Shown here: piece after piece, positions 7,673-34,731 of the stretch | Numbering within the stretch: the stretch's first letter is position 1 | How the letters are laid out: each line of letters begins with the position of its first letter | Source of the DNA: Alphaproteobacteria bacterium | GTDB lineage: Bacteria > Pseudomonadota > Alphaproteobacteria > UBA828 | DNA length: 64,000 nucleotides | NCBI GenBank assembly: GCA_965243375.1 | Contig: CBDEUT010000006.1 | Location: 64,131 to 128,130 of the forward strand | Direction: 5' to 3' | Program-made: the position numbers and the translations under genes | The notes under the pieces: generated by a model | Databases searched by the model: none | Told to the model about the DNA's origin: nothing | The model's input: only the letters and a program-made list of their open reading frames with translations

Positions 7673-7866
7673 GGCCCGGCGGGGATCAGCCCGTGCGGGC
7701 CTCTTCCTTGTTGTTCCTCGTCAGTCCGAGACTACGAAACCGCCCCGGCGACGCAAAGCCGCCAGGTCCACCCATCCCACGCTCGGCCACAATCCCGGGG
7801 AATTCACCGGCAGCCCAATGTGGGAAAAAAACCCGAGTTCCTATCGGGCTAAACCGCGAGACAACA

Positions 7867-12259: not shown

Positions 12260-13128
12260 GTGGCGGCTCCTTAGTCAGGGGCCGCGCGGCAGCGGGTCAA
12301 TATAGGAAGCGGCCGCGGCGGCGATTGCACAGGCAAGCCACGGGGCCGGAAGAGACAGGGTGTACCCTAACCCGCTCTAACTACGGAACTTTCTCTCCAT
12401 CCATGCATCGGCGAGACCAGGCAGAAATTGCGCGGTACGGGCGGCAGGTGTGAAGACCTTAACTCGCGTCAGCGAGTCAATTGGAATTGGGCGTTCAGCC
12501 TCAATGTCGGACGATGGCAACAAGGCGGTTCAAGGCTTTAGCCCAAGTGGCGCTTGAACGGGAATCGGCCCGAACGCGTGAGGGATTGACGCTGCGATCC
12601 GCAAGCGGCTTGCAGAGGGTCACTATAGGAAGCGCGGAAGACGATCCGGTGCACCGAGACAGGCACGAGGTCCATCACGGCATCCGTCTGCACTGTCGGC
12701 GCATCTGCCACGAACGATGACGGGACCGGCTGCACCGGGCTCGGCATCACTGCGGACCGTCCTGTCGGCGATGCTGTCGGCCGGGTCGTCGATGCTGTCG
12801 TCGCCGGTGACGGCGAGCGCGCGGCGCCGGGCGTTGGTGTCGCGGTCGCCTTTGCCGGCGATGTCCGGGCGGCGGACAGCGGCGAGGGGATCGCCGAAGA
12901 CGCGCAGACGCGACCGGTTGTTGCCTTGCGCTCCAGGCGGTTGCGGCTTACGGTACGCGAAATCGGAACAGGCGACGCTCGGCAGAAGTGCGCGCCGCAC
13001 GGGGTGCCATGCCGGGCGACAGGTGCGGAGGCGACGCGATGAACCCGATGACCATGTTGAGCGACGGTGTGGCGGCGTTTCGCGCGATGACGGCGAGCGG
13101 GCTGGAACGCTGGTCCGGCGTTTTGCGC

Positions 13129-19443: not shown

Positions 19444-19910
19444 GGAGCGACCTCGGCGACGGTGTTTTCATCGACGCCGTGCAGGCGGACCAGGGGGTCG
19501 AGGACCACGAGGCGTGGCGCGATGCGCTGCACGGTCTCGCGCAGACGCTGCCGGTCGTTGGCATGGTCGAGGCGCAGGATGGGAGCGTCGATGACGGCGA
19601 TGTCGAGCGTCTCGAAGCTGGCGCCGGCTGCCCGGGCGATGCCCTCAAGCCGGGCGCGCACGATGTGGCCGGCGTCCTCGGCCGCGAACAGCAGGACCGG
19701 TCCGGGCTGTTTGGCGGCGAAGCGGCGCAGACAGGGAACGCCGGCGGCGACGGCCACGGCGAGGTCCAGAGCCAGGAAGGATTTGCCGCACTTGGGTTCG
19801 CCGCCGACGATGCCGACGGCTTGGCGTCCCCAGAGGCCGTCGACCAGCCACTGCTGCCGGCTCGGGCGGTCCTCAAGGTCGGCCGGGCTTCGGGTCGGGA
19901 AGCCCTTCAC
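19444..19910 (-). pseudogene. AAA_25 RecA-like ATPase gene of copy C, N-terminal fragment (split by IS66)
   Basis: MKGFPTRSPADLEDRPSRQQWLVDGLWGRQAVGIVGGEPKCGKSFLALDL...; ends at the IS66 boundary. Confidence 0.7.
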
Positions 19911-20740
19911 CGGCGCGCTCTCCTGGTCTTGGTGGGCTCCCCCCAGGTCTCCAGGAAGAGCTTTTCGTCGAGCACTTCACGATCCTGATCGGCGCCGGCG
20001 GCGAGCAGCGCATCGGCCATGACGGTGAGCGTCCTGGGGTTGCCGCCGGCATGGGCGACGAGGGTGTCCTTGAGGCCGGCGGTCATCAGGGCGGGGTTGC
20101 CGGCCTCCTCCAGCAGGTGGTCGAGGAGGCGCAGTAGATCCTCGTCTTCGGGACGCGTCATGAGGAGGCGCTGGCGGATGCGGGAGTCGATGGGATGCAG
20201 CTCCGGCGTGCGCAGTTTTGCGAGCAGCCGGTTGTCACCGGCCAGCACCACGCCAAGGATGGTGCGCGAGTCGAAGTCGGTCGAGGAGAGCAGGCGCATC
20301 TCGGTCAGCACCGCGTTGGGCAGCTCCTGTGCCTCGTCGACCAGCAGGAGTGGGCGCATGCGCGTGTCGTCGAGGTGGTCGAGCCAGCGCTGCCGCAGTC
20401 CCTTGATCCCATTCCAGCGATTGTTGTGGGCCATGGTGATGGCGAAGCGGTCGGAGATCTCGTGGTAGAAGTCGGCGACGCTGGAGGACGGATGGGTGAG
20501 GACCGCGACGCTCAACCTGTCGATGCGCTCAAGGCGCTCGGCGAGCAACCGCAGCGCCACGCTCTTGCCGATGCCGGGCGGGCCGCCGATCAGGGCGAAG
20601 CCGCCCTGGCGCACCAGATGCCGTTCGACCCTGCGGCAGAAGTTCTCGACGGCGGGTGTGGTCATCAGGCCATCGACCGGGAGGTCGGTGGAGAAGGGGT
20701 TCCACTTGAGGCCGTACAGCGTGAGCATTTCGCGGTTCAT
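19907..20740 (-). CDS. TniB/MuB-like AAA+ ATPase, copy C paralog
   Basis: MNREMLTLYGLKWNPF...ALIGGPPGIGKSVALRLL...LLVDEAQELP; same architecture as 4862-5662, diverged. Confidence 0.7.
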   Translation of the reverse strand: MNREMLTLYGLKWNPFSTDLPVDGLMTTPAVENFCRRVERHLVRQGGFALIGGPPGIGKSVALRLLAERLERIDRLSVAVLTHPSSSVADFYHEISDRFAITMAHNNRWNGIKGLRQRWLDHLDDTRMRPLLLVDEAQELPNAVLTEMRLLSSTDFDSRTILGVVLAGDNRLLAKLRTPELHPIDSRIRQRLLMTRPEDEDLLRLLDHLLEEAGNPALMTAGLKDTLVAHAGGNPRTLTVMADALLAAGADQDREVLDEKLFLETWGEPTKTRRARR

Positions 20741-22254
20741 GAGGGGTCTCCCCGATCGTCGTCTTCGCCCGGCCCGGGGCTTTCGGCGTGAGGCAGCCAG
20801 GCCGGCGGCAGGCCCGTCGCGGCCTGGTCGTCGAGGATGCGCCTGAGCAGCGGCGCGGCTTCGCCCCCGCCGGCGCTGCCGCCGCCATCGTTGTCGCCGG
20901 GCCCGGCCGGGCGGCGCATACCGCCGGCATTGCCGCGCCGGTCGAGCGGGTAGAGGGTGCACAGCCGCTCGCCGCTTCGGCCGTCGACCAGATCAACGCT
21001 GGCCAGGTCCCAGCGCGCATAGCGGATCCACAGCGTGCTCAGGTGGCGCCACGGCGCGGGAACCTGATAGCGGATGCCCTCGAGCGACACGGTTCCGTCC
21101 GAGCGCCGCAGCGTGCGCTTCACGGTGATGCGGAACGCCGCCCTGAGCTCGTCGCGGCCGAGGCAGGGCCTCGACGCATCGTCGCTGTCGAGCAGGCGCT
21201 TGAGCGGCGTGGTGCCGAGCTCGCGGTGCACCCGGCGGTGGTAGTCCTGCTCGACCCAGGCGACGGTCGCGTCGTTGAGCGTCTTCAGGGTGAGCGGCTC
21301 GACGCCTTCGAGCATGGCCATCAGGCGGCCCTCGACCGAGGCCCACAGGACCTCCATCTTGCCATTCTGATGAGGCGCCCCCGCGAGGGTCCTGGAGTGG
21401 ATGATGCCGAGCCGGTGCAGCCCCTCCTCGACCTCCCCCGCCATCATCGGCGAGCCGTTGTCGCTCATGAGCGCGCGCGGCAGGCCGCGCTTCATGAAGG
21501 CCTGGCAGAGCCCGTGGACGAAGACCTCGGCGGTCTCCTCCAGGTACCACTGCAGGTGGCAACCCACCCGCGAGTGGTCGTCGAGGAAGCCGAGCATGAT
21601 CGGCGTGCGCCAGGCGCCGGACGCGGTCAGCACCCGGCACCGGGCATGATGGAAGTCGGTGTGCCAGAGCGCATGGCTGCGCGAGACCTCGAAGCTCAGC
21701 ACCTCGCGCGGCTCGACCGGCGCCCGCTCGGGTTCCCGGTCGAAGCGCCGCCGGCGGCGCTGGCGCACCAACCCGCGATTGCGCATTGCCCGGGTCAGCG
21801 TCGCGTAGGAGGGCATCGGGCCGAGCGCCGGATCGACCTCGACCAGCGCCCGCAGGTTGTCGTAATGCAGCTGCCCCGACCACGACGGATGCGCCCGGTA
21901 CTGGCCGCGCAGCGCCTCGATCAGCGCCGGCGACATCGCCCGCTCGCGGCCGGCATCGGTGCGCGGCCGGCGGCGCAGCGCCTTGACCGGATCCCGGTCC
22001 GCCGCCCGTGCCTGGTAGTACCAGCGTTCGATCGTCGACACCGAGAAGCGCACCGGCCCCTTGCCGGACGGGTGATCCCAGTCGCGTTGCGACAGCCGCT
22101 CCAGCTCCGCCCGCAACTGCCCCGTGGGCGGCGGCGAGGCCAGCAACGGCCCGACGACCGCGAAGCGCAGCCGCGCCCACCGGTCGCGGTCGCCCCCTCC
22201 GTTGTTGCTGTCCATGGCGGCATCTCTCCCTGGCCGTGTCGGGGAGATGCCCAT
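20737..22254 (-). CDS. DDE transposase (rve), copy C paralog
   Basis: ...LWHTDFHHARCRVLTASG...FLDDHSRV...LMSDNGSPMMAGE...HSRTLAGAPHQNGKMEVLW DDE core. Confidence 0.7.
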   Translation of the reverse strand: MGISPTRPGRDAAMDSNNGGGDRDRWARLRFAVVGPLLASPPPTGQLRAELERLSQRDWDHPSGKGPVRFSVSTIERWYYQARAADRDPVKALRRRPRTDAGRERAMSPALIEALRGQYRAHPSWSGQLHYDNLRALVEVDPALGPMPSYATLTRAMRNRGLVRQRRRRRFDREPERAPVEPREVLSFEVSRSHALWHTDFHHARCRVLTASGAWRTPIMLGFLDDHSRVGCHLQWYLEETAEVFVHGLCQAFMKRGLPRALMSDNGSPMMAGEVEEGLHRLGIIHSRTLAGAPHQNGKMEVLWASVEGRLMAMLEGVEPLTLKTLNDATVAWVEQDYHRRVHRELGTTPLKRLLDSDDASRPCLGRDELRAAFRITVKRTLRRSDGTVSLEGIRYQVPAPWRHLSTLWIRYARWDLASVDLVDGRSGERLCTLYPLDRRGNAGGMRRPAGPGDNDGGGSAGGGEAAPLLRRILDDQAATGLPPAWLPHAESPGPGEDDDRGDPS

Positions 22255-22264
22255 GTAGAGCGCC

Positions 22265-22879
22265 CTATCCGTTCATGACAGAAACGTTTTCTGCGGGCGC
22301 CGCCGGCCCGGCGCCGAGCGCGCAAAAGCCGGTCCACGGCATCAGCCAGACCAGGCTGCGCAACAGCCGCGAGCGGAAGCCGCGGCCCCGCATGGTGCGC
22401 AGCAGCCAGCGCAGCGGCACGTCGGCGGGGGGCGCCGCCAGCGCGCCCCGCTTCGCCCCCCACTCCCGGGTCAGCGGGAAGACTTCCAGCCACCAGCGCC
22501 GCCAGCGCTTCAGCGTCGAGGCCGGAACCCCGCACCGCCGCGCGATCGTCTGCAACCGCACGCCGCCGGCCACAGCCAGCGCGCTCACCACCAGGAACAG
22601 CGCCCCGACGTAGAAGCGGCGCCCGAAGAAACGCACCGACGGCGGCTTCACGCGGCGCCGGCATGACGAACAGCACAAGCTGAAGCGCCGCGCGTCGTCC
22701 CGAAGATCCACCGCCAGACCGTAGGGCTTGCGCGGGTAGGTCGCGCTGTGAAGCGTGCCGCCGCAGCGCGGACAGCCGGCCGCTCGGCAGGCCTCCGCCT
22801 CCGCCGCATCGACGCGCTTGAGAAAAGCCCAGACCCGGGCATTCGAATGGATGGAGTGCCGGAACAGCTTGTGCGACAT
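22265..22879 (-). CDS. Cys-rich hypothetical, copy C homolog of the transposon first gene
   Basis: 204 aa with CPRCGG...CCSSC motifs. Same position relative to the transposase as 7028-7672. Confidence 0.5.
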   Translation of the reverse strand: MSHKLFRHSIHSNARVWAFLKRVDAAEAEACRAAGCPRCGGTLHSATYPRKPYGLAVDLRDDARRFSLCCSSCRRRVKPPSVRFFGRRFYVGALFLVVSALAVAGGVRLQTIARRCGVPASTLKRWRRWWLEVFPLTREWGAKRGALAAPPADVPLRWLLRTMRGRGFRSRLLRSLVWLMPWTGFCALGAGPAAPAENVSVMNG

Positions 22880-22988: not shown

Positions 22989-23204
22989 TCAGCCCTGATT
23001 CCCCGCTGAAATTCTGCGCCCTCTCACCGGGTCGTGCCGGCCGTTGGCGGGTCCCCGGTAGTTGTAACGGAACCCGTAATGCTGCACGCGGCGGCTGAGA
23101 TCGGTGAGCCAGGGGGCCTGGGAGATGCGCAGCAGGATGCGCTCTTCCTCGGCCTCGGTGATGACGTCGGGCACCAGCGCGGCGCCGTGATCGAAGATGC
23201 TCAT
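22989..23204 (-). pseudogene. N-terminal fragment of AlkB-like 2OG-Fe(II) oxygenase
   Basis: VPDVITEAEEERILLRISQAPWLTDLSRRVQHYGFRYNY matches the AlkB-family N-terminal region. The reading frame ends after about 65 aa, close to the approximate end of copy C. No HxD...H core follows. Confidence 0.4.
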
Positions 23205-23332
23205 GGTGTCCTCCCCAGTGGAACGCTACCCGGGCCGGAGTCCTCTCTCCTTCCGGACGGATCGCCCTTCTCCGGGCTGACCTCTGCCTCGAACGCGCTT
23301 GCCGGGAGGGTGCGCGCGCTATTTGCAGACTG

Positions 23333-23770
23333 TCAGGACCAGGCCTGGGCGCGGGTCGCGGCGTCGTAGATGGCGCTGTAGGGCGGGTTCTCGGAGGAGG
23401 CGAGCACCGTCCTGGCGGGGTTGCGGTAGCGCAGCAGGACCGTGCGGGCGTCGGTGTGGAGCAGGGCCTCGTGGAAGGCGGACCAGGCGGCACTCTCGTC
23501 GTGGTGAACGGAGAAGACCTGCTCGGTCTCGATATCGGGGCAGTCGGGGTAGAGGCCCACGAGTTCGTAGCGTGGCGGGAGCGAGGGCTCGTGCCGGCAG
23601 GGCGTGACGCCGGTGCTGCTGTCGATCAGCAGGGTGCCCCTGCGCGGGCGGTCGGCGCCGCGGCGCCGGGTGCTCCGCGATGCCACGTGGCCGCGGTCGG
23701 TGGGGCCGGGCAGCGGCAACACGTCGGCACGATTCTGGGCGACGGTGCGCGCGAGATGGCGGCAGGGCAT
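23333..23770 (-). CDS. hypothetical protein
   Basis: 145-aa ORF in a very GC-rich region with ORFs in all frames. No family recognised. Confidence 0.25.
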   Translation of the reverse strand: MPCRHLARTVAQNRADVLPLPGPTDRGHVASRSTRRRGADRPRRGTLLIDSSTGVTPCRHEPSLPPRYELVGLYPDCPDIETEQVFSVHHDESAAWSAFHEALLHTDARTVLLRYRNPARTVLASSENPPYSAIYDAATRAQAWS

Positions 23771-24561
23771 GGGATTGCCTCCGGTGTAGGGTGGGACGGG
23801 GTGGCGCAGGCGGCGAGCGTTTCGCCGGTCGCGCCGGAGGTGAACGGCCGCCCGCTCGGGTCACCCTCCCGCCTGCGGGCGCTTCGCCCCCTTTCCCGGC
23901 CGGCCTCCGGCTCGAACGGGTGCGATCGACAGGCTGAGCGCGCAGCAGGTGTTGATCGGCGCACGGGCTTGGTGTCGATCCGCGCGGTAACCCATTGACC
24001 CAGCTGGATTGTGGGGGTCAACAAAGCGTGCTTAACAACAGACCAGACCGTGCGCTGCCGCGCCGGATATGTGCGCCGGACGGCGTCGGCTGTACCGGCG
24101 ACCCACCCTTCGGTAGCGCAAGCGAGTCAAGGCCGGCTCCAAGTCTCATCGTGTCACAAAGCAACACCAGTGCGTGGCACGCTCTACGCCGCATTTTCTC
24201 TGCCAGGTCAAGTAGAGAAATCATGAATTCCTGCGGCAGCAACGGAATAATCAAAGACATCGTTGGACCATAAACTACTATCGCGAAAGTGATCGTCGTT
24301 TCTATGGTTGTAGGGGGAACGTACTGGAGGAGTATGCAAGAGCGGTATATGGTATGTATTTTGGTCTATTTTTGCTTGCCTTTGGGAAACTAGAGGCTCT
24401 TGACTTCGCATGCGTATCGACGACTGCTCATTACAGCACTTATTATAATTTCCAAAGTGGGGCGTTATGGTGGCCGATTCTTGCGGACCTATAAGGAAAA
24501 TGTATAGTGTATTATGGAATTCATGAGTGAGTTTATCCGGGGTTTCATGGAGCCTTATTAG

Positions 24562-27051
24562 GTGAGAAATTCGGGTGTTGGGCGACCTGCTAGACCGGTT
24601 GTTCTAAACGATGAAGAACGGGCGTTCCTTCGGAGCGTTGTTTGCACCGTCCGCGCCAATAGAGCGGTTCAAACGCGTTGCCGCGCCATTCTACTTTGCG
24701 CCGAGGGACTGAGTAATTCCCAAGTAAGCAAGAGACTTGGCATATCGGATAGCTCAGTCTCGACAATGCGGAGCGGCTTTCTCAGGAGTCGCCGTCAGCT
24801 GAAGTCGAACATATATGCAAACCAGATAGTCTACAGTCCGGACGACGAAATACCGACCACGCTGAGGCGCTGGGTCTACAGCAGTCGAGGCTACCGTCCG
24901 AGACCCATTGAACTGGACGAAGAAGAGCGTTTTGTGCTAGAACACTATATTCGTAATTCCAGCGTAACCAGCACCATTACGGCTCGTTGTCGCATGATCC
25001 TGCATTGCGCCGAAGGCCTGAGTAACCGAGCGATCGCGAAAGAACTAGGCTTGAGCGACAACACGGTAAGGGATTGGCGCGCCAGCTTTCTCGAGGACCG
25101 CATCGATGGACTGCTGGGCAAGAGAAGAGCGGTCCGGGGGCATCGCCTTACGGGCAGGATGGGAGGTCCAGCTCTCGATCTCGTTGAAGGCGGTCGGGCC
25201 GGAGGTCGGCCGACGGTTGTCCTGGACGAGGATGAACAGGTGTCATTGAGAAGTCTTGCTCTTGGCCTGCAAGGCACGGGGACGAGATCGGATCGCTGCC
25301 GCATGATTCTGCTCTGTGCCGACGGCCTGACCGACGAGGCGGTGGCGGCAAAGCTCGGTGTGGGGCGCAAGACTGTCGGCAAATGGCGCCGTCGCTTTCT
25401 TGACGAGGGGGTTTGGGGGCTGATGGGTAAGCCCTGGCTCGGCCTCGGTCCCCCTCTGACCGACAAGCAGGCAGCAGAAATCCTCGAGCGTTCGCTCAGC
25501 AACGCGCCGGATGGACCGGTCCGCTGGACCGCGCAGGCGATGAGCGACGCAACCGGTCTATCGAAAACAACAATCCAGCGCACGCGGTCGGCCCTCGGTG
25601 CGTACCCACGCCGCTGGAAAATGCTCGAGCTCTCCAACGATCCCCTGTTCGTGGAGAGGGTGCGCGGCATCGCCGGGCTCTATATGCAGCCTCCGCTTCG
25701 CGCGATGGTGCTCTGTATCGGCAACGGCGCGCGCGCGGGCGCCGCCCTCCCAAGAGACGAAGCGGACCGGGGCCGGGAACCCGGCCGCGCGCAACCGGTT
25801 GCGCCGATCATGCCGGTGGTGTCGCGTACCCGAGATAGCAGGGTTCTCGGGACCAACTCGCTCCTCTTCGCCCTCGACGCCGCCGCAGGCTTCGACAGGA
25901 CTGCGGAGCTCGCGCGATTCCGCGCCGAGGAGGTTCACGAGTTCCTGCGGCAGATCGACCGGAGTGTCCCTGACGATCTGCCTCTGCACATCATTCTCGA
26001 CTACTGCGTCAAGTATGAGAACGCGACGATCAGGCACTGGCTGGCGCGGCGTCCGCGCTGGCATGTCCACGTCGCGCCAACCCCGGCCGCGTGGGTCTAT
26101 CAAGCCGAGCACTGGTTCGCCGAACTGACGCGCAGGCAGTCAAGGATCGGCGAGAGTGCCTCCACGCATTGCCTCACGGCCGATATCCGCGCCTTCGTCG
26201 ACGGACACTTCGATGGGCCCGAGCCCTTCATATGGCCTGTGTCCACCGATGACCGTCTCGCCGCCGTCGCACATCCTGGCCGGCTCATCGCGCCAACCCG
26301 TACCGCCGCGAGTATCGGAGGCAACGGGCTCGGTCAGCGGAATGGACCGCCGCCGGCACTTGAGCGCAGCCAAGACCGCAATTCGGTCCGTGCCTCAAGC
26401 GCCGGGCAGGCGAGCACACGGCAGGAGGCAAACGCTGAGAAAGGCTCCGGCGAGGCCGCGGAAACGGACGCCGGGTCCGGAGAGGGCTGCGACAGCTCAT
26501 GGCTCGATTGCGCTCTGCAGCACTTTCAAATGGAGACGCTCAGCGAGCTGATAATCATGCTCGGTTCCGTCGACCGCGATGTCCTCGATCGCGTGACCCA
26601 GGCGCTGATGGACGCGCGCCACGTGCTCGTCGCCAGCCGGGACAGGGATCAAATCTGCGCTATTCACATGCAACGTATCGCAGCCAGGCGGTTTCGCAAT
26701 TGGCAACATGTGAGATGCAATAGTTCGGAGACGGTTGAATCCCCGACCCGTCTTACGCCCGGCGATGTCGTGGTCGGAATTGCACTCGGGCCGTTCAACC
26801 ACTCCAGCTCGTTCGATGACCACACCCTCCGGCTTGCCGAACGTGCCCGAGCCGTAGGCGCGCGGGTGATCGGCATTACCGACTGGCGAGAGTCGACCTT
26901 GGCCGCCTACGCAGACGATGTCCTACACGCTCCGGGCCTGGGACCCGTCTCATTTCCGTCCTGTGTGCCCGCGATGGTCCTCGTCGAAGCGCTGATCGAA
27001 ATCCTGGGAGCGCGCATCGACGGCTGCGGCTGTGGGACGCCGGACGAATGA
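24562..27051 (+). CDS. fusion protein: three tandem IS630-type HTH modules, a catalytically dead IS630 (DDE_3) transposase core and a C-terminal SIS (sugar isomerase) domain
   Basis: Three repeats of LxDEExxxL...RCRxILxCAEGLSNxxxAKxLGxSxxTV. LYMQPPLRAMVLCIGNG...LHIILDYCVKYE...APTPAAWVYQAEHWF aligns to the IS630 DDE_3 core with the first catalytic D replaced (SVDEKS to CIGNGA). C-terminus has ARHVLVASRDRDQICAIHMQRI...GDVVVGIALGPFNHSS...ARVIGITDWRESTLAAYADDVL, an RpiR/MurR-type SIS domain. GC is lower than the surroundings and an AT-rich tract lies upstream. GTG start. Confidence 0.75.
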   Translation: MRNSGVGRPARPVVLNDEERAFLRSVVCTVRANRAVQTRCRAILLCAEGLSNSQVSKRLGISDSSVSTMRSGFLRSRRQLKSNIYANQIVYSPDDEIPTTLRRWVYSSRGYRPRPIELDEEERFVLEHYIRNSSVTSTITARCRMILHCAEGLSNRAIAKELGLSDNTVRDWRASFLEDRIDGLLGKRRAVRGHRLTGRMGGPALDLVEGGRAGGRPTVVLDEDEQVSLRSLALGLQGTGTRSDRCRMILLCADGLTDEAVAAKLGVGRKTVGKWRRRFLDEGVWGLMGKPWLGLGPPLTDKQAAEILERSLSNAPDGPVRWTAQAMSDATGLSKTTIQRTRSALGAYPRRWKMLELSNDPLFVERVRGIAGLYMQPPLRAMVLCIGNGARAGAALPRDEADRGREPGRAQPVAPIMPVVSRTRDSRVLGTNSLLFALDAAAGFDRTAELARFRAEEVHEFLRQIDRSVPDDLPLHIILDYCVKYENATIRHWLARRPRWHVHVAPTPAAWVYQAEHWFAELTRRQSRIGESASTHCLTADIRAFVDGHFDGPEPFIWPVSTDDRLAAVAHPGRLIAPTRTAASIGGNGLGQRNGPPPALERSQDRNSVRASSAGQASTRQEANAEKGSGEAAETDAGSGEGCDSSWLDCALQHFQMETLSELIIMLGSVDRDVLDRVTQALMDARHVLVASRDRDQICAIHMQRIAARRFRNWQHVRCNSSETVESPTRLTPGDVVVGIALGPFNHSSSFDDHTLRLAERARAVGARVIGITDWRESTLAAYADDVLHAPGLGPVSFPSCVPAMVLVEALIEILGARIDGCGCGTPDE

Positions 27052-27104
27052 ACGATCGAGCGGAACAACCCGGGTCGATGGCCCGCCCGTAAGGAGAGAG
27101 ATAC

Positions 27105-27407
27105 ATGAACGATTCCAGCAACGAGCCGGTCACCGACGATTCCGACAACAAGCTGATCGCCGATCTGGCGACAGGCTTGATGTTGGCCGTGGCCGCAACC
27201 GGCGCCCTGAAGGGAGCCAACGCCGAGACCAAAGAGTACGCGGGAGAGGTTCTGGAAAGCGAGTTGGCGAAGTTTCGTGAGGGCGAAGGGGAGTACGGCG
27301 TCAACCATGAGCGCGTCGACGCGGGCAGCATGAGCGTGGCGGATTCGCTCGCCACGTTGGTCGCCAATTGCACCGAGAAGATCGCCCTCTTCAAGGTGCC
27401 TGCCTGA
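27105..27407 (+). CDS. small acidic hypothetical protein
   Basis: 100 aa with a good Shine-Dalgarno (AAGGAGAGAGATAC ATG). 3' end overlaps the IS5 remnant. Confidence 0.4.
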   Translation: MNDSSNEPVTDDSDNKLIADLATGLMLAVAATGALKGANAETKEYAGEVLESELAKFREGEGEYGVNHERVDAGSMSVADSLATLVANCTEKIALFKVPA

Positions 27408-27880
27408 ACGAGCGTGCGCGCCATTCGCCATCATTTTGATCATGGCGACGTAGTTGGCGGCGAGTTTCCCGTAGCGTGTTGCGATGCGCCGGAGCTGTTT
27501 GAGTGTGTTGAAGAAACGCTCGACCAGGTTGCGCATGCGGTAGAGCACACGGCTGAAGGCATGGGGCGTCTTGGCGCTGCCGCGGTCGGGGATGATCGGG
27601 ACCGCATCCTGGGCCTCGATCATTGCCCTCATCCATTCCGCGTCATAGGCCTTGTCGGCGAGCACGAAGCAATCTGGCGGCAGGCGATCGTCGAGCAAAG
27701 CTCCGGCAGGCTTGCTGTCGTGGGCCTGGCCTGGACTCAAGGCGAAGCGGAGCGGCAGGCCGCTGGTGTCGCGCGGCCACGCGCGCGGAGCGCACGATGA
27801 CCACGGTATGGGACTTCGTCGTCAGTCCGCCTCGAGAACGACTGTTATTCGGCGACCAACCCTGATCCCTCTGAATCACA
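27390..27880 (-). mobile_element. IS5-family (IS427-group) transposase remnant, 5'-truncated and frameshifted
   Basis: ...RGGLTTKSHTVV then frameshift ...SPGQAHDSKPAGALLDDRLPPDCFVLADKAYDAEWMRAMIEAQDAVPIIPDRGSAKTPHAFSRVLYRMRNLVERFFNTLKQLRRIATRYGKLAANYVAMIKMMA, typical of IS427-group transposases. The N-terminal roughly 100 aa are absent. Confidence 0.7.
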
Positions 27881-28292
27881 TAAAATCACCGGGTTGCCTT
27901 GCCGATCGGCGTCCAATCGACGTGCCGATCAACACCTTTCGGCGGCGTTCGTGGAGTATGCCCGTCGCGATGTCGCTGCAATTTTGTCAGCCGTCGCGGC
28001 TGCGCAGTCCGGTGCAGTTGTCCATTTCGGCTTGCGCGGGGGCACATCGGTCGCGACGCCCGAAACGACTTCCTGACCGTTGTGCAGCTTCGTACGTCAC
28101 TGTCGAATGGTCAAAACCAACCTGCCCCGCAGTCTGACGCGATCACGAACAATCGGACATACGGGAACGTGATTCTGCGCGAGCCGGGCGACCGGCCGGG
28201 GCGGAGATGCTTGGCGCCTGCCGCTCTGAACCCCGTCCGCAGATGGCGGCATGGACGAATCGTCACTCCAGGATTTCAAGCGGGAATGGATC

Positions 28293-29396
28293 ATGGTGAA
28301 GGGAACCGGCTACAAGACTCTCTGCGCTGCGGTTGCAGGCGGGAACCGGGACACGCTGCAGCTGGCTGCGGCGGCGGACCCGGAAGCGGCCCGGCATTGG
28401 AAGCCCGTCATGGACGCCGCATTCGCCGGGCGCGCGGACATGATCGAGGCGCTTCTGGATGTGGGGGCCGATCCGAATGCGATCGCCGGTTCGTCCAACC
28501 GTCACACGCCGTTGGTACGGGCGATTCAGCCACACGCAAGCATTCCGAAACACGCCGGTCACGGCGCGGCCGTGGACCTACTGTTGGCCCGAGGCGCGGA
28601 TCCGGACCTGGCCGCCGGTCCCCATGGCATGCCGCCGCTGGCCTACGCCGCGATGGGCGGTTTCCAGGGGTTCTTGACGAAGCTGCTCGATGCCGGTGCG
28701 GCCGTCGACATCTACGGTGCGGCCATGCTCTACGACCTGGAAGCCTTGCAGGGCGAGATCGCTCGCGTAGGCGTCAATTGCCCGGACGGACGCGGACGAA
28801 CGGCACTCCATTACCTCGCCTGGTCCGGCATGTGGAAGCTGCCCCACATCGGATCGGCTCCCGCGCTGGATTGCCTCAACCTGCTGATCGAGGCTGGCGC
28901 GGACGTCAACCTCCACGAGACAATCGTCGACGGGGACGAGTTATTCGAAGCGACGGCGCTCTGGCGAGCCACTGCGTGGCAGAAACACACTGCGCTGGTT
29001 TACGCCTTGCTCGAGGCCGGGGCGCTCCCGGCGCAAACGGTGTTCGGTGCCGCCTTCGCCGGTGACGAGGAGGTCCTCGCCGCGCTCGACGCCTTCGGTG
29101 CCGACTGGAACCTGCGGTTGAACGGAAGGACACCTCTCCTTGACCTCATGCACTTCCGGAAGCCGGGCGCTGTCCCCTGGCTGCTGCGACACGGCGCCGA
29201 TTCTTGTGCGAGAGACCGGGAGGGGCGAACCGCACTGCACCTCGGCGCACTGCAGGGCGTGAGGGTCGCCTACCTCCAAGCCCTGGTGGCCCATGGAGCC
29301 GATCCGCGACAGCGCGACAACTCCGGGCAGACCGCACTCGATCTTGCGCGCCGGAAGCGTCATGGCAGGACCATCGCCTGGCTTGAGGGCCTGTAA
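28293..29396 (+). CDS. ankyrin-repeat protein
   Basis: At least 6 ankyrin repeats (GADPNA..., TPLxxAxxxGHxxxVxxLLxxGAD). An alternative upstream start lies at 28251. Confidence 0.8.
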   Translation: MVKGTGYKTLCAAVAGGNRDTLQLAAAADPEAARHWKPVMDAAFAGRADMIEALLDVGADPNAIAGSSNRHTPLVRAIQPHASIPKHAGHGAAVDLLLARGADPDLAAGPHGMPPLAYAAMGGFQGFLTKLLDAGAAVDIYGAAMLYDLEALQGEIARVGVNCPDGRGRTALHYLAWSGMWKLPHIGSAPALDCLNLLIEAGADVNLHETIVDGDELFEATALWRATAWQKHTALVYALLEAGALPAQTVFGAAFAGDEEVLAALDAFGADWNLRLNGRTPLLDLMHFRKPGAVPWLLRHGADSCARDREGRTALHLGALQGVRVAYLQALVAHGADPRQRDNSGQTALDLARRKRHGRTIAWLEGL

Positions 29397-29654
29397 AACG
29401 TGATCTCCATGCTGTTTGTCCGCAGCGTCGAAGCCTCGGGGAAGCCTACCCCTTGCCTGCCGACGACGAACTGTGCGGCGCCTGTCTGCACGAGCTGCAG
29501 AATCTTGCAGCCGGGAACCGCGGCGAACCGTCGTTCGCCCTCGGGCTCGGCGGGTTCGAGACCCGGCGCTGCTGGGCGCTCGCCCGGCCCACGCCTGTCA
29601 ATCGGCTTCGAAGATTGATCCCCGATAGGAATGGGCCCATGGGGTCGGACAGTT

Positions 29655-29919: not shown

Positions 29920-30113
29920 TGTTGTCTCGCGGTTTAGCCCGATAGGAACTCGGGTTTTTTTCCCACATTGGGCTGCCGGTGAATTCCCCGGGATTGTGGC
30001 CGAGCGTGGGATGGGTGGACCTGGCGGCTTTGCGTCGCCGGGGCGGTTTCGTAGTCTCGGACTGACGAGGAACAACAAGGAAGAGGCCCGCACGGGCTGA
30101 TCCCCGCCGGGCC

Positions 30114-30758
30114 ATGGCCGGTTTGCAGCTTCGTTACGAGACGGGGCTTACCGGCGAGGAATACGTTAAGACCGAGGCGTGGCGCGAGGCAAGGCTTGAG
30201 CGCTGCCCGAATCACCCGCACGGCGGATGTTCCGTGGGCAGCCACGGCACCTACGGGCGGAAGACCCCGCCCGGTGCGAAGGTTCCCCGCTGGTATTGCC
30301 GTGAGAGCCATACGACGATCAGCATGCTGGCCGACTGCCTGTCGTCGCGGCTGCCGGGCACGCTCGACGATCTGGAAGCGGTTGTTGTGGCGGCGGAGAA
30401 AGCCGGCAGCCTGGAGGAGGCAGCGAACGAGGTGCGCTGCCCCGAGGACGAAGACGCGATCGAGCTTCCCGGCGCGATGCGCTGGGTGCGCCACCGGCTT
30501 CGCCTGGTCCACAACGTTCTTGTCCGTGTCATCGGCCTGATCCCCGACCGGCTGGCGGGCTGCGCGGCCACCATGGTGGCGGTTCGCGAGCGTCTCAACA
30601 GCGACAGCGCCTTGATGGCGCTGCGTGGCCTGGTGTCTGAGCAACTGCAGATGCTGCCCGCCCCATTGGGCTTCCAACCCCACGGAATCGGCACGATGAG
30701 TCGCAAGGCGGGCTTCCAACACTCGATGGGGCCTGATCCCCCTCCGGCGGCGGCGTAG
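30114..30758 (+). CDS. Cys/His-rich hypothetical protein (transposon gene 1)
   Basis: Identical to 7028-7672. Confidence 0.55.
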   Translation: MAGLQLRYETGLTGEEYVKTEAWREARLERCPNHPHGGCSVGSHGTYGRKTPPGAKVPRWYCRESHTTISMLADCLSSRLPGTLDDLEAVVVAAEKAGSLEEAANEVRCPEDEDAIELPGAMRWVRHRLRLVHNVLVRVIGLIPDRLAGCAATMVAVRERLNSDSALMALRGLVSEQLQMLPAPLGFQPHGIGTMSRKAGFQHSMGPDPPPAAA

Positions 30759-30762
30759 CGTC

Positions 30763-32124
30763 ATGGTCCCGGGGCCGAAGAGCCCCAGCAACGAGGACCA
30801 TGACATGAAGGAATCCGACGACGACCTTCGCCAGGCGATCGCGCTGTTCCGATACGGCGTCATCGCCGATCTGGTGCATCTGCCGATGGGCGCCAAGGGC
30901 GTCGGCGACAAGCTTCGCGAGAAGGCGAGCCAGACCTATGCCATCCCCGGAACCGACCGGACCCGTGTCGCCGCCGACACCATGCGGGACTGGATCAGGC
31001 ATTATCGCGATGGCGGCTTCGAGGCGCTCTACCCCAGACCACGTAGCGACCGCGGGAAGCCCCGGCGGCTGCCGGCCGAGGTCGCCGAGCGCCTGGTCAC
31101 GCTGAAGGTCGACAACCCGACCTGGCCGGTGCGCGCGATCATCCGCGCGGCCGTCGAGGAGGGCATCGATCACCCGCTCGCTCCATCCACCGTGCACCGG
31201 CTGCTGAGCCGCGAGGGGCTGTTCGACGGCAAGCCGCCGGACGGCGCCGACCGCCGCCGCTTCGCCTTCCGGGACGCCGGCGAGCTGTGGATGAGCGACG
31301 TCATGCACGGGCCGAAGGTCCGGCACGGCCGGAGCCGACGCAAGACCTACCTGATCGCCTTCATCGACGACGCCACCCGGGTCGTGCCCTTCGCCGCCTT
31401 CGCCATGGCCGAGAGCGTCCAGGCCTTCCTGCCCGTGTTCAAGAACGCGCTGATCCGCCGCGGCCTGCCGCAGCGCCTCTATGTCGACAACGGCGCCGCC
31501 TACCGCTCCCGCCAGCTCGCCCTGATCTGCGCGAAGCTGGGCATCGTGCTGGTGCATGCCAGGCCGTATCAACCAGCGGGAAAGGGCAAGATCGAACGGT
31601 GGTTCAGAACGCTTCGCGCCGGCTGGCTCGCCCATCTCGATGCGCCGGTCCTGGACAGCCTCCAGACGCTCAACCGCAGCCTGTGGGCGTGGATCGAGGG
31701 CGAGTATCACAACAGTCCGCATCGCGGCCTTGAGGGGCGCACCCCGCTCGAGCAATGGGCACTCGCCTCGGCCGCGGTCCGCTACCCCGACGCCACGCTG
31801 GACCTCGACGATATCTTCCTCTTCGAGGCCAAGCGGCTGGTCCACAAGGACCGCACCGTCAGCCTGAACGGCCGCGTCTACGAGGTCGACGCCCTGCTGG
31901 TCGGCCACAGGGTGGTGCTGCGCTACGACCCGGATGCGCCGCCGTCGCGGCCGCTCGGCGTGGTGCACGACGGCAAGCCTGTCGGCCAGGCAACCCGCCT
32001 CGACGCCTACGCCAACACCGCGGTGAAGCGCGGCCACTACTCCAAGAAGATCGAACCCGACGACCCGGCCCCAGAGCCGCCGCCCTCGCCGCTCAAGATG
32101 CGCAAGTTCAAGGAGGACGACTGA
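30763..32124 (+). CDS. DDE transposase, Mu/Tn552/TniA-like
   Basis: Identical to 5662-7023; an alternative start lies at 30802. Confidence 0.8.
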   Translation: MVPGPKSPSNEDHDMKESDDDLRQAIALFRYGVIADLVHLPMGAKGVGDKLREKASQTYAIPGTDRTRVAADTMRDWIRHYRDGGFEALYPRPRSDRGKPRRLPAEVAERLVTLKVDNPTWPVRAIIRAAVEEGIDHPLAPSTVHRLLSREGLFDGKPPDGADRRRFAFRDAGELWMSDVMHGPKVRHGRSRRKTYLIAFIDDATRVVPFAAFAMAESVQAFLPVFKNALIRRGLPQRLYVDNGAAYRSRQLALICAKLGIVLVHARPYQPAGKGKIERWFRTLRAGWLAHLDAPVLDSLQTLNRSLWAWIEGEYHNSPHRGLEGRTPLEQWALASAAVRYPDATLDLDDIFLFEAKRLVHKDRTVSLNGRVYEVDALLVGHRVVLRYDPDAPPSRPLGVVHDGKPVGQATRLDAYANTAVKRGHYSKKIEPDDPAPEPPPSPLKMRKFKEDD

Positions 32125-32924
32125 TGTACCAGCGCCACTTCGCCTTCACCCGCATGCCCTTCGAGACCGTGGCGGAGACCGACGAGCTGTTCGAATCCAG
32201 CGCGCGCCGCGAGGCCGAGGCCCGGCTCGGCCACCTCATCGAGCTCAAGGGCATCGGCATGCTCACCGGTGAGGTCGGTGCCGGCAAGACAACCGTGTGC
32301 CGGCATCTTACCGCCCAGCTCCACCCCGGCCTGTTCCGAGTCCACTACGTCTCGCTGACCACCGGCAACGTGCTCGACATGTACAAGTCCATCGCCTGGG
32401 AGATCGGCATCACCGTCGAGCGCTCGCGATCCTCGGCCCACCACGCGATCAGGACCGAGATCTCGCGCCTCGCGACCGAGGCCAGGCAGTTCCCGGTGCT
32501 GGTCGTCGACGAGGCCCATCATCTGCGCAACGACGTGCTGGAGGACCTCCGCCTGCTGACCAACTTCGCGATGGACTCCGAGAACCGCATGTGCCTGATC
32601 CTGGTCGGGCTGACCGAGCTCAGGCGGCGGCTGTCGATGGCGGTGCACGAATCGCTCTCCCAGCGCGTCGTCGTCCGCCACCACCTCACCGGCCTCGACC
32701 GCGACGAGGTCGAGGCCTATCTGACCCACCGCCTGCGCCTCGCCGGATGCGAGCTGCCGCTGTTCGAGGACGCCGCCGTCGAGGCCCTGTTCCAGGGAAC
32801 CCGCGGCCTGCCGCGCCAGGTCAACCGCCTCGCCCACTACGCGCTGTCGGCCGCCGCCCTGGAGAAGGCGAAGACGGTCAACGCCGGCCACCTCCAGAAT
32901 GCCATCGAGGAGCTCAAGCCGTGA
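32124..32924 (+). CDS. TniB/MuB-like AAA+ ATPase
   Basis: Identical to 4862-5662. ATG at 32124 overlaps the TGA of the transposase gene. Confidence 0.75.
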   Translation: MYQRHFAFTRMPFETVAETDELFESSARREAEARLGHLIELKGIGMLTGEVGAGKTTVCRHLTAQLHPGLFRVHYVSLTTGNVLDMYKSIAWEIGITVERSRSSAHHAIRTEISRLATEARQFPVLVVDEAHHLRNDVLEDLRLLTNFAMDSENRMCLILVGLTELRRRLSMAVHESLSQRVVVRHHLTGLDRDEVEAYLTHRLRLAGCELPLFEDAAVEALFQGTRGLPRQVNRLAHYALSAAALEKAKTVNAGHLQNAIEELKP

Positions 32925-33973
32925 CCGGCACCGGGGACGCGGCGGCGAACGGCTTCCCGACGCGGGCGCCGGTGGAGCTGGAGGACCGGCCGCGCCAGCA
33001 GCAGTGGCTCATCGACGGGCTGTGGGGGCGCCAGGCGGTCGGCATCGTCGGCGGCGAGCCCAAGTGCGGCAAGTCCTTCCTGGCGCTCGACCTCGCCGTC
33101 GCGGTCGCCGCCGGCGTCCCCTGCCTGCGCCGCTTCGCCGCCGACGAGCCAGGACCCGTCCTGCTGTTCGCCGCCGAGGACGCCGGCCACATCGTGCGTG
33201 CCCGGCTCCAGGGTATCGCGAGCGCCGCAGGCGCCCGGTTCGAGAGCCTCGACATCGCAGTCATCGACGTGCCCGCGCTGCGCCTCGATCATCGCGCCGA
33301 CCGCCGGCGGCTGGTCGAGACGGTGCAACGCATCCGGCCCCGCCTCGTCGTCCTCGACCCCCTGGTCCGGCTGCACGGCGTCGACGAGAACACCGTCGCC
33401 GAGGTCGCCCCCATCCTCGGCTTCCTACGCGACATCCAGCGCCGCTTCGGAGCCGCCGTCCTGCTCGTCCACCACGCCCGCAAGAGCGGCGCCACAAGGC
33501 CCGGCCAGGCCCTGCGCGGAAGCTCGGAACTGCACGCGTGGGGCGATTCGAATCTCTACCTGCGCCGACGCGACAGGCAGATCGTCATGACCGTCGAGCA
33601 CCGCGCCGCCCCCGGCCTCAATGACATCGAGATCGAACTCGCCGATGACGGCAAGGGGCCCGCGCTGCGCCTCCGCCAAGTGGATACTGCCGAGGCCGCG
33701 CCCGAGCCCGAAACCGCCGAACGGCGCATCCTCAAGGCGCTCGCCGAAGCCGGGACGCCGCTGTCGCAGCGCCAGATCCGCGAACGCGCCGCGACCCGGC
33801 ACAAGACCGTCGGCGTCGTCCTCAAAAAGCTCGTCCGCGAAGGACGCGTCCGGCACGACGCCGAGGGGCACTACGGCCTCGCCGCGGGCCAGGCCGAAAA
33901 GGCCTCCCCGGCCGCCAACGGCAGCCACCCCGACAACGCCCGGTTCCCGGTTCCCGGTTCCGCCCATCCCTAG
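32921..33973 (+). CDS. RecA-fold AAA_25 ATPase with winged helix (transposon gene 4)
   Basis: Identical to 3813-4865. GTG start overlaps the upstream stop codon. Confidence 0.7.
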   Translation: MTGTGDAAANGFPTRAPVELEDRPRQQQWLIDGLWGRQAVGIVGGEPKCGKSFLALDLAVAVAAGVPCLRRFAADEPGPVLLFAAEDAGHIVRARLQGIASAAGARFESLDIAVIDVPALRLDHRADRRRLVETVQRIRPRLVVLDPLVRLHGVDENTVAEVAPILGFLRDIQRRFGAAVLLVHHARKSGATRPGQALRGSSELHAWGDSNLYLRRRDRQIVMTVEHRAAPGLNDIEIELADDGKGPALRLRQVDTAEAAPEPETAERRILKALAEAGTPLSQRQIRERAATRHKTVGVVLKKLVREGRVRHDAEGHYGLAAGQAEKASPAANGSHPDNARFPVPGSAHP

Positions 33974-34299
33974 GGGTTCGAGGGGGAACCGCTCACGGGA
34001 ACCACCCTCGCAAACCGCTCGTCAGGCTCCGGCCACGACAAGGCGTCGAGCGATCGGCCCATGGCCGAAAGCTCCGCTTACGGCCATGGATGCACTCAGT
34101 CGGGCGGACGGCGGCGGGTCACCCGAAGGGCCGTAGCGCAGCGAAGGAGCCGCGTAGCGGCTTGACGCGCCGACGGCCGGCCGACACCCCCCCACCCCCT
34201 CTCTTCCTTCCGACAATGACCAAACAGCGTGGGAAATCCGCCTCGCCGCCGCGCGAAATAATCCGGCAAATCTGCGGTCAGCTAATCTGGGAAACAACA

Positions 34300-34731
34300 C
34301 AGGGACCGATAGGCTTGGGCGGCGTATTGCGAATCCCTGTCTGTGAGATTGAGCAGATCCGACGCGAAGCGCCGGCGGGTGTCCGGGCCTGCCGCGCAGA
34401 GCCCGCTGTCGTGAGCCTCGGAGACGGCGACGATGTGCTCGATATCGGACTCACGAATGCTCCGGAAATGCCGCCCCGTGTAGGGCCCGTAAACGTGTTC
34501 GCCCATGGCGGCGACGATCTTGCGCTCGACCGAGCGCGGATAGGGGTAGTGGGTCCGGTCGTAGGGCGCGCAGCGGTGCTCGGGCGCGACGATGAGGCCG
34601 TTCCAGGTTTCGGCGCCCAGCGCCGGGGGGTGAACGGCGAGGCTGGCCGCGACGACGGCAGCAGCGAGCGCGAGGGCGCCAAAGGGGATCGCCGCCGGGC
34701 GCTGCCGGGGCGGGGTCGATCTTCCTGTCAT
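34300..34731 (-). pseudogene. secreted His-Me finger (DUF1524/GmrSD C-terminal-like) nuclease gene, 3' end replaced by an IS3 remnant (34300-34341) that is itself cut by transposon copy B
   Basis: Signal peptide AIPFGALALAAAVVAASLA. The ...YGPYTG...DIEHIVAVSEAHDSGL...RRRFASDLLNLT motif is typical of DUF1524 nucleases. From DRDSQY onward the frame is IS3 OrfB. Confidence 0.55.

Follow-up and report, generated by a model that had tools for sequence, protein, structure and literature searches.

The 64,000-nt stretch of DNA analyzed here, referred to as the window, contains a gene whose product is related to IS630 transposases and carries additional N- and C-terminal domains. This locus raises the question of whether such a protein still moves DNA, is decaying, or has been recruited for a different function. 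The original prediction was that the protein is a domesticated transposase that acts as a ligand-responsive DNA-binding regulator. We examined its domains, its relatives and its surroundings with this question in mind.

An 829-aa protein with a triplicated N-terminal HTH

The gene occupies positions 24562..27051 (+ strand, as do all coding features below) as a single continuous frame of 829 codons that opens with GTG, exactly as originally predicted, and encodes three HTH modules, HTH_32, a degenerate IS630 DDE core, a linker and a SIS domain. A GGAG sequence is located 9 nt 5´ of the GTG, the start position is kept across six loci, and an estimate from base composition gives a chance of ~1e-10 for an open frame of this length at this GC content. 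The deposited gene calls begin at M248, so that the first 247 residues are dropped and two HTH modules are hidden. The reduced GC content noted earlier was borne out by measurement, with 62.9% for the gene compared to 68.7% for the window and 45.6% for the AT-rich tract upstream (24130..24561), presumed to be a promoter or regulatory region.

Pfam HTH_23/HTH_29 matched three stretches of the protein (E 2e-32), each corresponding to a module of 103 aa. Module 1 (aa 1-103, 24562..24870) is of the HTH_23/29 type found at the N-terminus of IS630 transposases and has a pI of 11.2, module 2 (aa 104-206, 24871..25179) has a pI of 9.6, and module 3, which contains M248, forms together with HTH_32 the normal bipartite IS630 DNA-binding domain (aa 207-365, 25180..25656). 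The three modules align without gaps to one another and to the N-terminus of an active IS630 transposase, and the corresponding direct DNA repeats have an exact period of 309 nt (24599/24908/25217 and 24676/24985/25294). HTH_32, the second HTH of the bipartite domain, occurs once (aa 271-340). The prediction of three paired HTH repeats is therefore correct for the number of modules but not for the pairing, as the triplication involves the first HTH alone. The HTH modules are basic (pI 9.4-11.2); the linker, the SIS domain and the product of the adjacent gene described below are acidic.

Catalytic positions are not conserved in the IS630 core

The predicted homology to IS630 transposases was detected. 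The NCBIfam model transpos_IS630 (NF033545) scored 168.6 bits (cutoff 100) over aa 245-547, which span model positions 2-296 of 299, and the IS630 motifs quoted in support of the prediction (LYMQPPLRAMVLCIGNGA, LHIILDYC and VAPTPAAWVYQAEHWF) are all found in the 829-aa protein. The match to Pfam DDE_3 alone was weak (21 bits, under the cutoff of 28.6). The bipartite HTH and the RNase-H-like core are common to the window protein and IS630 transposases (NF033545; HTH_23/HTH_29 + HTH_32 + DDE_3), with 42-47% identity in the core, where 24 columns, mostly structural residues, are invariant with the active enzymes.

Within the degenerate DDE_3 (RNase H-like) core (aa 366-570, 25657..26271), the position of the first catalytic Asp is occupied by Gly in the window protein. 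A 12-residue insertion (aa 387-398, GNGARAGAALPR, 25720..25755) is found here between strand beta-1 (VLCI) and a retained D399-E400, whereas the active relatives read VLCVD-EK and are insertion-free; insertions of 12-13 residues were detected at the first Asp in 13/13 family members and in 0/7 active IS630 transposases. At the second catalytic Asp position, the window protein keeps D480 (25999..26001), five of the 13 family members have Asn, and the THK motif that follows in the active enzymes is gone in all 13. The third position, E516 (26107..26109, in YQAEHW), is kept in 13/13. For clade 2, the first Asp is missing altogether while the ORFs are still conserved and intact. Glu alone is thus invariant, and the catalytic residues are no longer conserved across the family. 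The universal insertion together with Asn at the second position in 5/13 members points to a conserved function that is independent of DDE catalysis. With respect to the catalytically dead core of the original prediction, the Gly at the first position and the retention of D480 and E516 are as described. D399, D480 and E516 can all be aligned, though, and what suggests inactivity of the window protein itself is the insertion; the full-length AF2 model (pLDDT 52, core <50) is too poor for active-site geometry.

These alignable residues and the invariance of E516 could also be expected of an enzyme that still transposes or recombines DNA under control of the SIS domain, moving a larger unit with ends outside the inspected region. 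Two further observations fit this idea: P0018, a relative with an intact DDE triad, likewise has a duplicated N-terminal HTH, and the L004 locus shares with the window, in a different left context and at 89.6% nt identity, a module of at least 5.4 kb (window positions 24041-29460). However, the insertion parts the first Asp from beta-1 in every member, and the members with Asn at the second position or without the first Asp are conserved and intact. The ends and copy number of the gene, described next, also argue against it.

The gene is present once per locus and lacks terminal inverted repeats

The active IS630 elements of Mesorhizobium/Rhizobium (L077, L079 and L081) are ~1166 bp (~1.17 kb) long, encode transposases of ~350 aa and are multi-copy; active relatives are found many times per genome, for example at >10 loci in OZ253557.1. 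In contrast, the window protein has two extra HTH modules, a linker and a SIS domain, and its gene is present once in the window and once at each orthologous locus, with flanks that differ between loci. As predicted, no terminal inverted repeats (TIRs) were detected around the gene or the module, and the TIR of the relatives had no match in the window; the same method, applied as a positive control, found the 31-37-bp TIRs of L077, L079 and L081. The window also contains neither IS630 copies nor IS630 ends. A 14-nt inverted match (23947-23960 / 27924-27937) was treated as chance, given that the right arm is within an IS5 remnant and the left arm is outside the shared module. An ordinary IS630 element carrying a passenger gene was rejected based on the absence of TIRs, the single frame in at least seven assemblies and the one copy per locus. 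The single copies and the lack of inverted repeats beside gene or module likewise speak against a gated enzyme that moves a larger unit, as does the left boundary at 24041, which is specific to the window, with L003 and L004 sharing sequence further left. We consider a working enzyme of this kind very improbable.

Positions 24041-24561 of the window have 49.9% GC, and the 420 nt 5´ of the gene have 45-48% GC at each of seven orthologous loci, including the window tract. No k-mers were common to the upstream regions of four clades, and no conserved operator or repeated site was found between clades in these regions. A single promoter-like site (24417-24446) is no more than expected by chance. 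We also considered as an operator an 11-nt perfect inverted repeat, TCATGAATTCC (24221) and GGAATTCATGA (24516), which is not conserved even in L004. Rfam and tRNA scans of the region detected nothing.

The C-terminal SIS domain has been exchanged between lineages

The core is followed by a variable, acidic, low-complexity linker (aa 571-655, 26272..26526), ~50 aa of which are missing in clade 1b, and by an RpiR-like, 'type B' SIS domain (aa 656-829, 26527..27048). With the whole protein, the SIS model (PF01380) scored 24.2 bits against a cutoff of 25; with the C-terminal 190 aa alone the score was 27.9 bits, and PF01380 matched 11/12 family C-termini. The best PDB profile match, over the whole domain, was to the RpiR SIS domain 3sho (E 2.7e-6). 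Using an AF2 model of the domain (pLDDT 75.5, pTM 0.74), the top Foldseek matches against the PDB were all SIS domains (TM 0.62-0.73, E 1e-9 to 1e-6), and together the model and these matches give the five-stranded alpha/beta SIS fold. Among proteins without the fusion, those nearest to this SIS domain are RpiR regulators (HTH_6+SIS) and SIS proteins that stand alone, P0023 and P0027 being the closest; distantly related proteins are ~290 aa long and combine HTH_6 with SIS. A scan of JGI metagenomes with SIS-specific patterns revealed no relative.

The profile matches and the predicted fold agree with the RpiR/MurR-like SIS domain of the original prediction, but its proposed binding of a sugar phosphate is weakened. 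The SIS phosphate loops (GxGxS after beta-1; SxSGxT after beta-3, as in GlmS ISQSGET) are not conserved. Aligned to 1vim and 3sho, the window loops read S-R-D-R-D-Q and A-L-G-P-F-N-H-S-S-S-F-D-D-H-T, and other clades have G-M-D-L-D-H and G-T-x-P-C-C-D at these positions. Compared to typical SIS domains, the Ser/Thr-rich phosphate-binding loops are thus replaced by acidic or other residues, making a phosphosugar ligand doubtful.

A free-standing SIS paralogue of 209 aa is additionally present in one clade (clade 1b). The cores of clades 1a and 1b are 60% identical; the window SIS domain has 34-40% identity to the fused SIS of clade 1b and 67-80% identity to the stand-alone SIS of the same clade. 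The window fused SIS is therefore orthologous to the free-standing paralogue, indicating that the domain was swapped. A C-terminal SIS domain was retained through this swap, or re-established after it.

An acidic partner gene and an intact, conserved family

A gene encoding a 100-aa acidic protein (27105..27407, pI 4.3) of no known family begins 53 nt past the stop codon of the large gene and has an AAGGAGA ribosome-binding site. An acidic gene of ~100 aa is located 3´ of the large gene in every case; its product has no Pfam, PDB or defense-model match. We also note that this obligatory partner gene was absent from the original prediction, as were the SIS paralogue with its domain swap and the insertion that all members have at the first Asp.

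A search for orthologues with the same fusion, suggested along with the prediction, returned full-length intact ORFs with 43-82% aa identity and the same architecture from at least seven independent assemblies. The family ORFs are 770-830 codons long and share the same domain order over a range of dS ~1. The family is rare, occurring in 2/185,579 species genomes, and both taxonomically assigned carriers are Alphaproteobacteria. PLSDB plasmids gave no nucleotide match, and the protein search of this collection returned ordinary IS630 transposases only. None of the sources checked had a name for the family, and in the full-text literature we found no paper on it, only papers on eukaryotic IS630/Tc1-mariner domestication and none on bacterial cases, which fits the earlier statement that this architecture is undescribed.

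All domains have a dN/dS ratio <1, and the lowest values are those of the HTH modules (0.28-0.32 in comparison with L004). The overall values of 0.42-0.56 are fairly high, and the core of the closest pair reaches 0.86, a ratio inflated by low dS in this GC-rich region; such levels are more in keeping with relaxed or conflict-driven evolution than with a housekeeping regulator. The core value could also be that of a transposase in decay that became joined to a neighboring SIS gene by accident and has no selected function. The window island, rich in IS debris (an IS5 remnant, IS66 and TniA/B-like transposons), would suit such a remnant, as would the database entries P0006, P0012 and P0013, which are frameshifted or truncated. 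However, the truncated entries derive from long-read contigs of 2-3x coverage, and elsewhere the long ORFs are intact with their domain order preserved. The conserved start codon and partner gene, the regained C-terminal SIS and the dN/dS of 0.3 in the HTH modules are also at odds with loss of function, and we regard mere decay as quite improbable. Collectively, the intact conserved ORF, dN/dS <1, unconserved catalysis, absence of TIRs, one copy per locus and the kept SIS domain favor domestication of an IS630 transposase, which, as originally proposed, is well supported.

The gene is cargo of integrative mobile elements

Wherever the gene was found, it lay in a variable cargo region of an integrative mobile element. 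Across loci, the neighbors include GmrSD_C/Excalibur, RES, AAA_15/DUF4435, Prok-E2/JAB, Pkinase+UvrD+SMC, SSB, Macro, NADAR and AAA_34 helicase genes, and no candidate target gene other than the partner gene is conserved between loci. PADLOC gave generic HTH matches only and no known defense-system model.

Given this company of defense-type and anti-restriction-type genes, the protein may be a component of a conflict system in which the HTH array recognizes particular DNA, such as resident IS630 ends, the ends of the element itself, or DNA entering on plasmids or phages, and prevents or sets off a response, with the partner as effector or antagonist and roles in transposition immunity or repression, defense or anti-defense. 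The elevated dN/dS (0.4-0.9) and the exchange of SIS cassettes between lineages are consistent with such a role, and Alphaproteobacteria, to which both assigned carriers belong, have an abundance of related active IS630 elements. The partner is small and acidic, which is a general property of DNA mimics such as Ocr and ArdA. Nevertheless, defense models match nothing beyond the generic HTH, the window has no IS630 copies or ends, the defense-type neighbors vary between loci, and the partner protein has no recognizable effector domain. A conflict role is possible but the less favored reading of the context.

Comparison with known regulators and proposed function

The layout of an N-terminal HTH and a C-terminal SIS domain follows the same logic as RpiR/MurR regulators (HTH_6+SIS; 3sho, MurR 7en5-7, NanR 4ivn and RccR 8k3b). 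The window protein differs in that the DNA-binding part is derived from a transposase and ~450 extra residues separate the first HTH from the SIS domain; HTH_6 (PF01418) is not among the best 25 Pfam families for the 829-aa protein, the modules of which are of the HTH_23/29/32 type. The basic HTH array combined with an RpiR-type SIS domain makes a ligand-responsive DNA-binding regulator, as originally suggested, a reasonable inference from the architecture. The absence of an operator conserved between clades, and of conserved targets beyond the partner gene, speaks against such a role.

We therefore propose, with a probability of roughly 55%, that the protein is a domesticated, immobile IS630 transposase that binds specific DNA sequences and has a sensor or oligomerization domain. 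The three HTH modules and HTH_32 would bind DNA, probably at an extended or repeated site, while the RNase-H-like core would serve as a scaffold rather than an enzyme. The SIS domain would dimerize or tetramerize the protein and couple DNA binding to a signal. This signal may be a protein partner (the free SIS paralogue, the small acidic protein or both) or a small molecule that is not a classical phosphosugar. The module, of two genes or, in one clade, three, travels with integrative elements as cargo and probably controls genes that belong to the element or serve it.

Eukaryotes offer well-documented examples, such as CENP-B and SETMAR, of DDE transposases that now serve the cell by binding DNA. 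IS630 belongs to the Tc1/mariner superfamily, and CENP-B, a eukaryotic Tc1/mariner/pogo domesticate, has an N-terminal HTH, an inactive DDE scaffold, an acidic linker and a C-terminal dimerization domain. This appears to be the same layout as that of the window protein, which differs in being bacterial and borne on mobile elements and in having a SIS fold at the C-terminus, a triplicated HTH and a small acidic partner gene. The likeness raises the more speculative, and in our view unlikely, idea of a CENP-B-type bacterial domestication in which the transposase has become a multi-HTH DNA-binding scaffold and the SIS domain responds to a protein partner, either the stand-alone SIS paralogue or the small acidic protein, and not to a sugar phosphate. 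This would give a previously unrecognized two- or three-component switch, carried by integrative elements for control of their own behavior or for conflict with other mobile DNA. In prokaryotes, TldR, a nuclease-dead repressor derived from TnpB, is a precedent for a transposon nuclease reused as a DNA-binding regulator. TldR differs from the window protein in its unrelated fold and mechanism (an RNA-guided RuvC nuclease) and has neither a SIS domain nor an HTH array.

The family provides a clean case of bacterial domestication with visible intermediates, including a relative that has its DDE triad intact and its HTH duplicated, clades with different catalytic losses, and SIS domains that are both fused and free. 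Current annotation hides such proteins: because the NF033545 score is above the curated cutoff, model-based annotation would probably label the protein an IS630 transposase, and the deposited calls lack its first 247 residues. If the protein is truly a regulator or conflict protein of integrative elements, it would represent a new kind of sensor-linked DNA binder, with a testable partner protein.

An 829-aa open reading frame outside an insertion sequence

The 829-aa ORF predicted at 24562..27051(+) was borne out exactly; it has a GTG start codon with GGAG 9 nt 5´ of it, and we estimate from base composition that the chance of an 829-codon open frame at 62.9% GC is ~1e-10. The lower GC content claimed for this large gene was also measured (62.9% vs 68.7% for the window), as was the AT-rich tract 5´ of it (24130-24561, 45.6% GC). 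In all seven orthologous loci, the 420 nt 5´ of the large gene have a GC content of 45-48%, and comparison of these regions between clades revealed no common sequence motif. The database entry identical to the window protein (P0001) was called from M248 (582 aa), as were several orthologues, with the DNA 5´ of M248 in frame and the start position kept in every orthologous locus read. The GTG start and a lower GC content (56.8%) in the first 741 nt probably explain why the deposited calls begin at M248. These calls leave out window 24562-25302, which corresponds to two HTH modules.

As predicted, no inverted repeats were found to flank the large gene or the larger shared module, and nothing resembling the TIR of active relatives was present in the window sequence. 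The same repeat finder recovered 31-37-bp TIRs on three active elements, used as a positive control. The flanks of the large gene vary from locus to locus.

Repeated HTH modules and an altered catalytic site

The NCBIfam IS630 transposase model matched aa 245-547 over nearly its full length (168.6 bits, cutoff 100), and a Pfam scan detected three stretches of HTH_23/HTH_29 (E 2e-32), a single HTH_32 (aa 271-340) and a weak match to DDE_3 (21 bits, cutoff 28.6). Of the three paired IS630-type HTHs in the original prediction, three copies of the first HTH are present, with HTH_32 following only the third copy. The DNA has direct repeats with an exact period of 309 nt (24599/24908/25217 and 24676/24985/25294), and the three 103-aa modules, all strongly basic (pI 9.4-11.2), align without gaps to one another and to the N-terminal part of L077, an active IS630 transposase, with the invariant pattern L..L...RCR..IL..A.G...L...R. 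The N-terminal duplication is not unique to the large-protein family, as P0018, a DDE-intact relative, carries the module twice.

The catalytic site was examined in an alignment of 13 family members and seven active transposases. All seven active proteins read VLCVD-EKSQIQALDR at the first Asp, and exactly at this position 13/13 family members have 12-13 additional residues; the window protein reads VLCI-GNGARAGAALPR-DEADRG. Here, either Gly387 would be substituted for the Asp or D399-E400 would be retained but displaced from strand beta-1. Nor do clade 2 proteins have an Asp at the alternative position after the insertion (R-E-K or E-E). The second Asp is present in eight of the 13 members (D480 in the window protein) and is Asn in the other five, the THK motif after it is gone in all 13, and the Glu at the third position (E516) is invariant. 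The description of the window protein as having the first Asp replaced and the second and third acidic positions kept was accurate. In 24 columns, most of them Trp, Gly or Pro, the residue is the same throughout the family and the active proteins; together with the changed catalytic positions, they indicate that the fold has been maintained and the chemistry has not. Judging from this alignment, the conserved function of the family cannot depend on the DDE triad. That the large protein is an active transposase whose activity is gated fits the comparative data poorly and is most improbable. In the full-length AF2 model, the core has pLDDT <50, too poor for active-site geometry.

A C-terminal SIS domain with divergent phosphate loops

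The predicted SIS domain was supported by a Pfam match, a profile match to RpiR SIS and the predicted fold. The Pfam match was borderline for the full-length protein (24.2 bits, cutoff 25) and over the threshold for the C-terminal 190 aa alone (27.9 bits), with 11 of 12 family C-termini matching. The best PDB match for the family profile was 3sho, an RpiR regulator SIS domain (E 2.7e-6, entire domain covered), followed by other SIS proteins, MurR among them. A PDB search with the AF2 model of the domain (pLDDT 75.5, pTM 0.74) returned only SIS domains as top matches (TM 0.62-0.73), including 1viv, 1vim, 1m3s, 3sho, MurR, NanR and RccR. When 1.84 billion representatives were scanned exhaustively with HMMER, 82 matches were obtained. 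Of ten matches scanned against Pfam, nine have a SIS domain; four of these are canonical RpiR proteins (HTH_6+SIS, ~290 aa) and three have a stand-alone SIS (186-233 aa).

Classical SIS domains, as in GlmS, have the phosphate-binding loops GxGxS after beta-1 and SxSGxT after beta-3. The fold of the domain is SIS, but a phosphosugar ligand is doubtful because these loops are not conserved, reading S-R-D-R-D-Q and A-L-G-P...D-D-H-T in the window protein and G-M-D-L-D-H and G-T-x-P-C-C-D in other clades.

A partner gene and replacement of the SIS domain

A ~100-aa partner gene (27105-27407, + strand, RBS AAGGAGA) begins 53 nt past the stop codon of the large gene, and an equivalent small gene lies 3´ of the large gene in every orthologous locus, with an identity of 81% in L004, 68% in L003 and about 30% in clade 2. 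The 100-aa partner protein is acidic (pI 4.3), matched nothing in Pfam, the PDB or defence models and belongs to no known family. Partner and large gene are equally rare, and several partner clusters share a contig with a member of the large-protein family. The partner has a weak Xre/MqsA-like extension at the C-terminus in L001, L002 and L006. In L090/L091, it forms the N-terminus of a 437-aa ORF.

In the clade 1b loci, a third gene encoding a 209-aa stand-alone SIS protein lies between the large and small genes (L003 3751-4380; L089 10370-10999; L090 9628-10257; L091 4733-5362). Identity is 85% between the copies in L003 and L089, and 87-93% across the SIS domains of the three copies sequenced. 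The first ~8 codons of this gene copy the start of the small gene. The window protein (clade 1a) and clade 1b proteins share 60% identity across the N-terminus and core. The window SIS domain is 34-40% identical to the fused SIS of clade 1b vs 67-80% identical to the stand-alone SIS, and the fused SIS domains of clades 1b and 2 are 57-76% identical. The SIS domain fused in the window protein has its orthologue in the stand-alone SIS of clade 1b. The incongruence between regions indicates that the window lineage swapped its original SIS for the paralogue, most simply by a deletion joining the linker to the second SIS. Retention of a C-terminal SIS through this rearrangement argues that the domain matters, and the swap also suggests a mechanism that involves SIS-SIS or SIS-partner contacts.

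A rare, quickly evolving family

Searching 5.8 billion protein clusters gave only 22 matches, 15 with the large-protein architecture and seven to ordinary IS630 transposases; full-length orthologues (771-828 aa) are encoded in L001/L005, L002, L003, L004, L006, L084 and L085. With one genome per species for 185,579 species, the large gene was found in two, an Alphaproteobacteria MAG and a Rhodospirillales MAG, the remaining loci being ordinary IS630 transposase genes (mostly about 1.05 kb, often multi-copy, 42-47% identity). The fusion was not found on any PLSDB plasmid, nor was a family member found in a JGI metagenome scan with SIS-specific patterns. One metagenomic protein from JGI (P0020, 587 aa) has a TetR_N/AcrR N-terminus joined to a DDE-intact IS630 transposase and may represent a further transposase fusion or an artefact of gene calling.

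dN/dS (Nei-Gojobori) relative to L004 was 0.42 overall, 0.28-0.32 for the HTH modules, 0.42 for the SIS and 0.86 for the core, the last value inflated by a low dS (0.11) where the gene is most GC-rich. More distant pairs gave about 0.5 overall. Even allowing for the core value, the large protein evolves quickly for a bacterial regulator. A decaying remnant is a poor fit to the comparative data and is improbable.

The large gene resides in a mosaic integrative element

The window is a mosaic integrative element containing tyrosine integrases, a serine recombinase, a resolvase and IS66, as well as an AAA_34/Helicase_C_4 giant helicase, SRAP, a ParB-like protein and DUF6880. Two of three TniA/TniB-like transposons form a perfect 4381-nt inverted repeat (3486-7866 and 29920-34300; rve/Mu-transpos_C 453 aa, AAA_22 389 aa and a 214-aa gene) enclosing 22 kb that include the large gene; the third copy (19907-22879) is diverged. 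The 22-kb segment could be invertible by recombination, or the repeat could be an assembly problem. A perfect 1619-nt inverted repeat (10834-12452 and 62382-64000, the right copy reaching the window end) carries a 398-aa tyrosine integrase gene, and an 889-aa protein with a Calx-beta domain (13274-15943, + strand) is also encoded within the mosaic. An IS5-family transposase remnant (27435-28137, - strand; DDE_Tnp_1, C-terminal part) is common to L004, where a spurious 210-aa ORF is called on the opposite strand. A 381-aa ankyrin-repeat protein (28251-29396, + strand) shares 96% identity with the corresponding L004 protein and matches PDC-M72A, a candidate defence model of PADLOC (E 6e-21).

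L001 has the backbone genes of the window plus SSB, Toprim, Macro and a TrwC relaxase, which points to a conjugative element. In both, the module has the helicase on one side and an AlkB-like (2OG-FeII_Oxy_2) backbone segment on the other, but its orientation is opposite in the two. This segment (window 23029-23334 vs L001 13482-13786, 89.5% identity) is inverted relative to the large gene; related elements therefore carry the module in the same variable region, in one orientation or the other. At other loci, the module is found among defence-type genes (RES, AAA_15/DUF4435, Prok-E2/JAB and kinase+UvrD+SMC). As the main alternative reading, the large protein might be a DNA-binding machine that serves conflict between mobile elements rather than ordinary transcription control, a possibility that we regard as tentative and rather unlikely.

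No source checked gave a name for the large-protein family, and full-text literature searching, in agreement with the claim that the architecture is undescribed, gave only eukaryotic IS630/Tc1-mariner domestication. Both transposase domestication and SIS-gated regulators are known, but not their combination, nor the triple HTH or the partner gene. In the order of HTH then SIS, the large protein resembles RpiR regulators, and as an HTH, dead DDE, acidic linker and oligomerisation domain, it resembles CENP-B. We favor, with a probability of roughly 55%, a domesticated IS630 transposase that acts as a sensor-linked DNA-binding protein.
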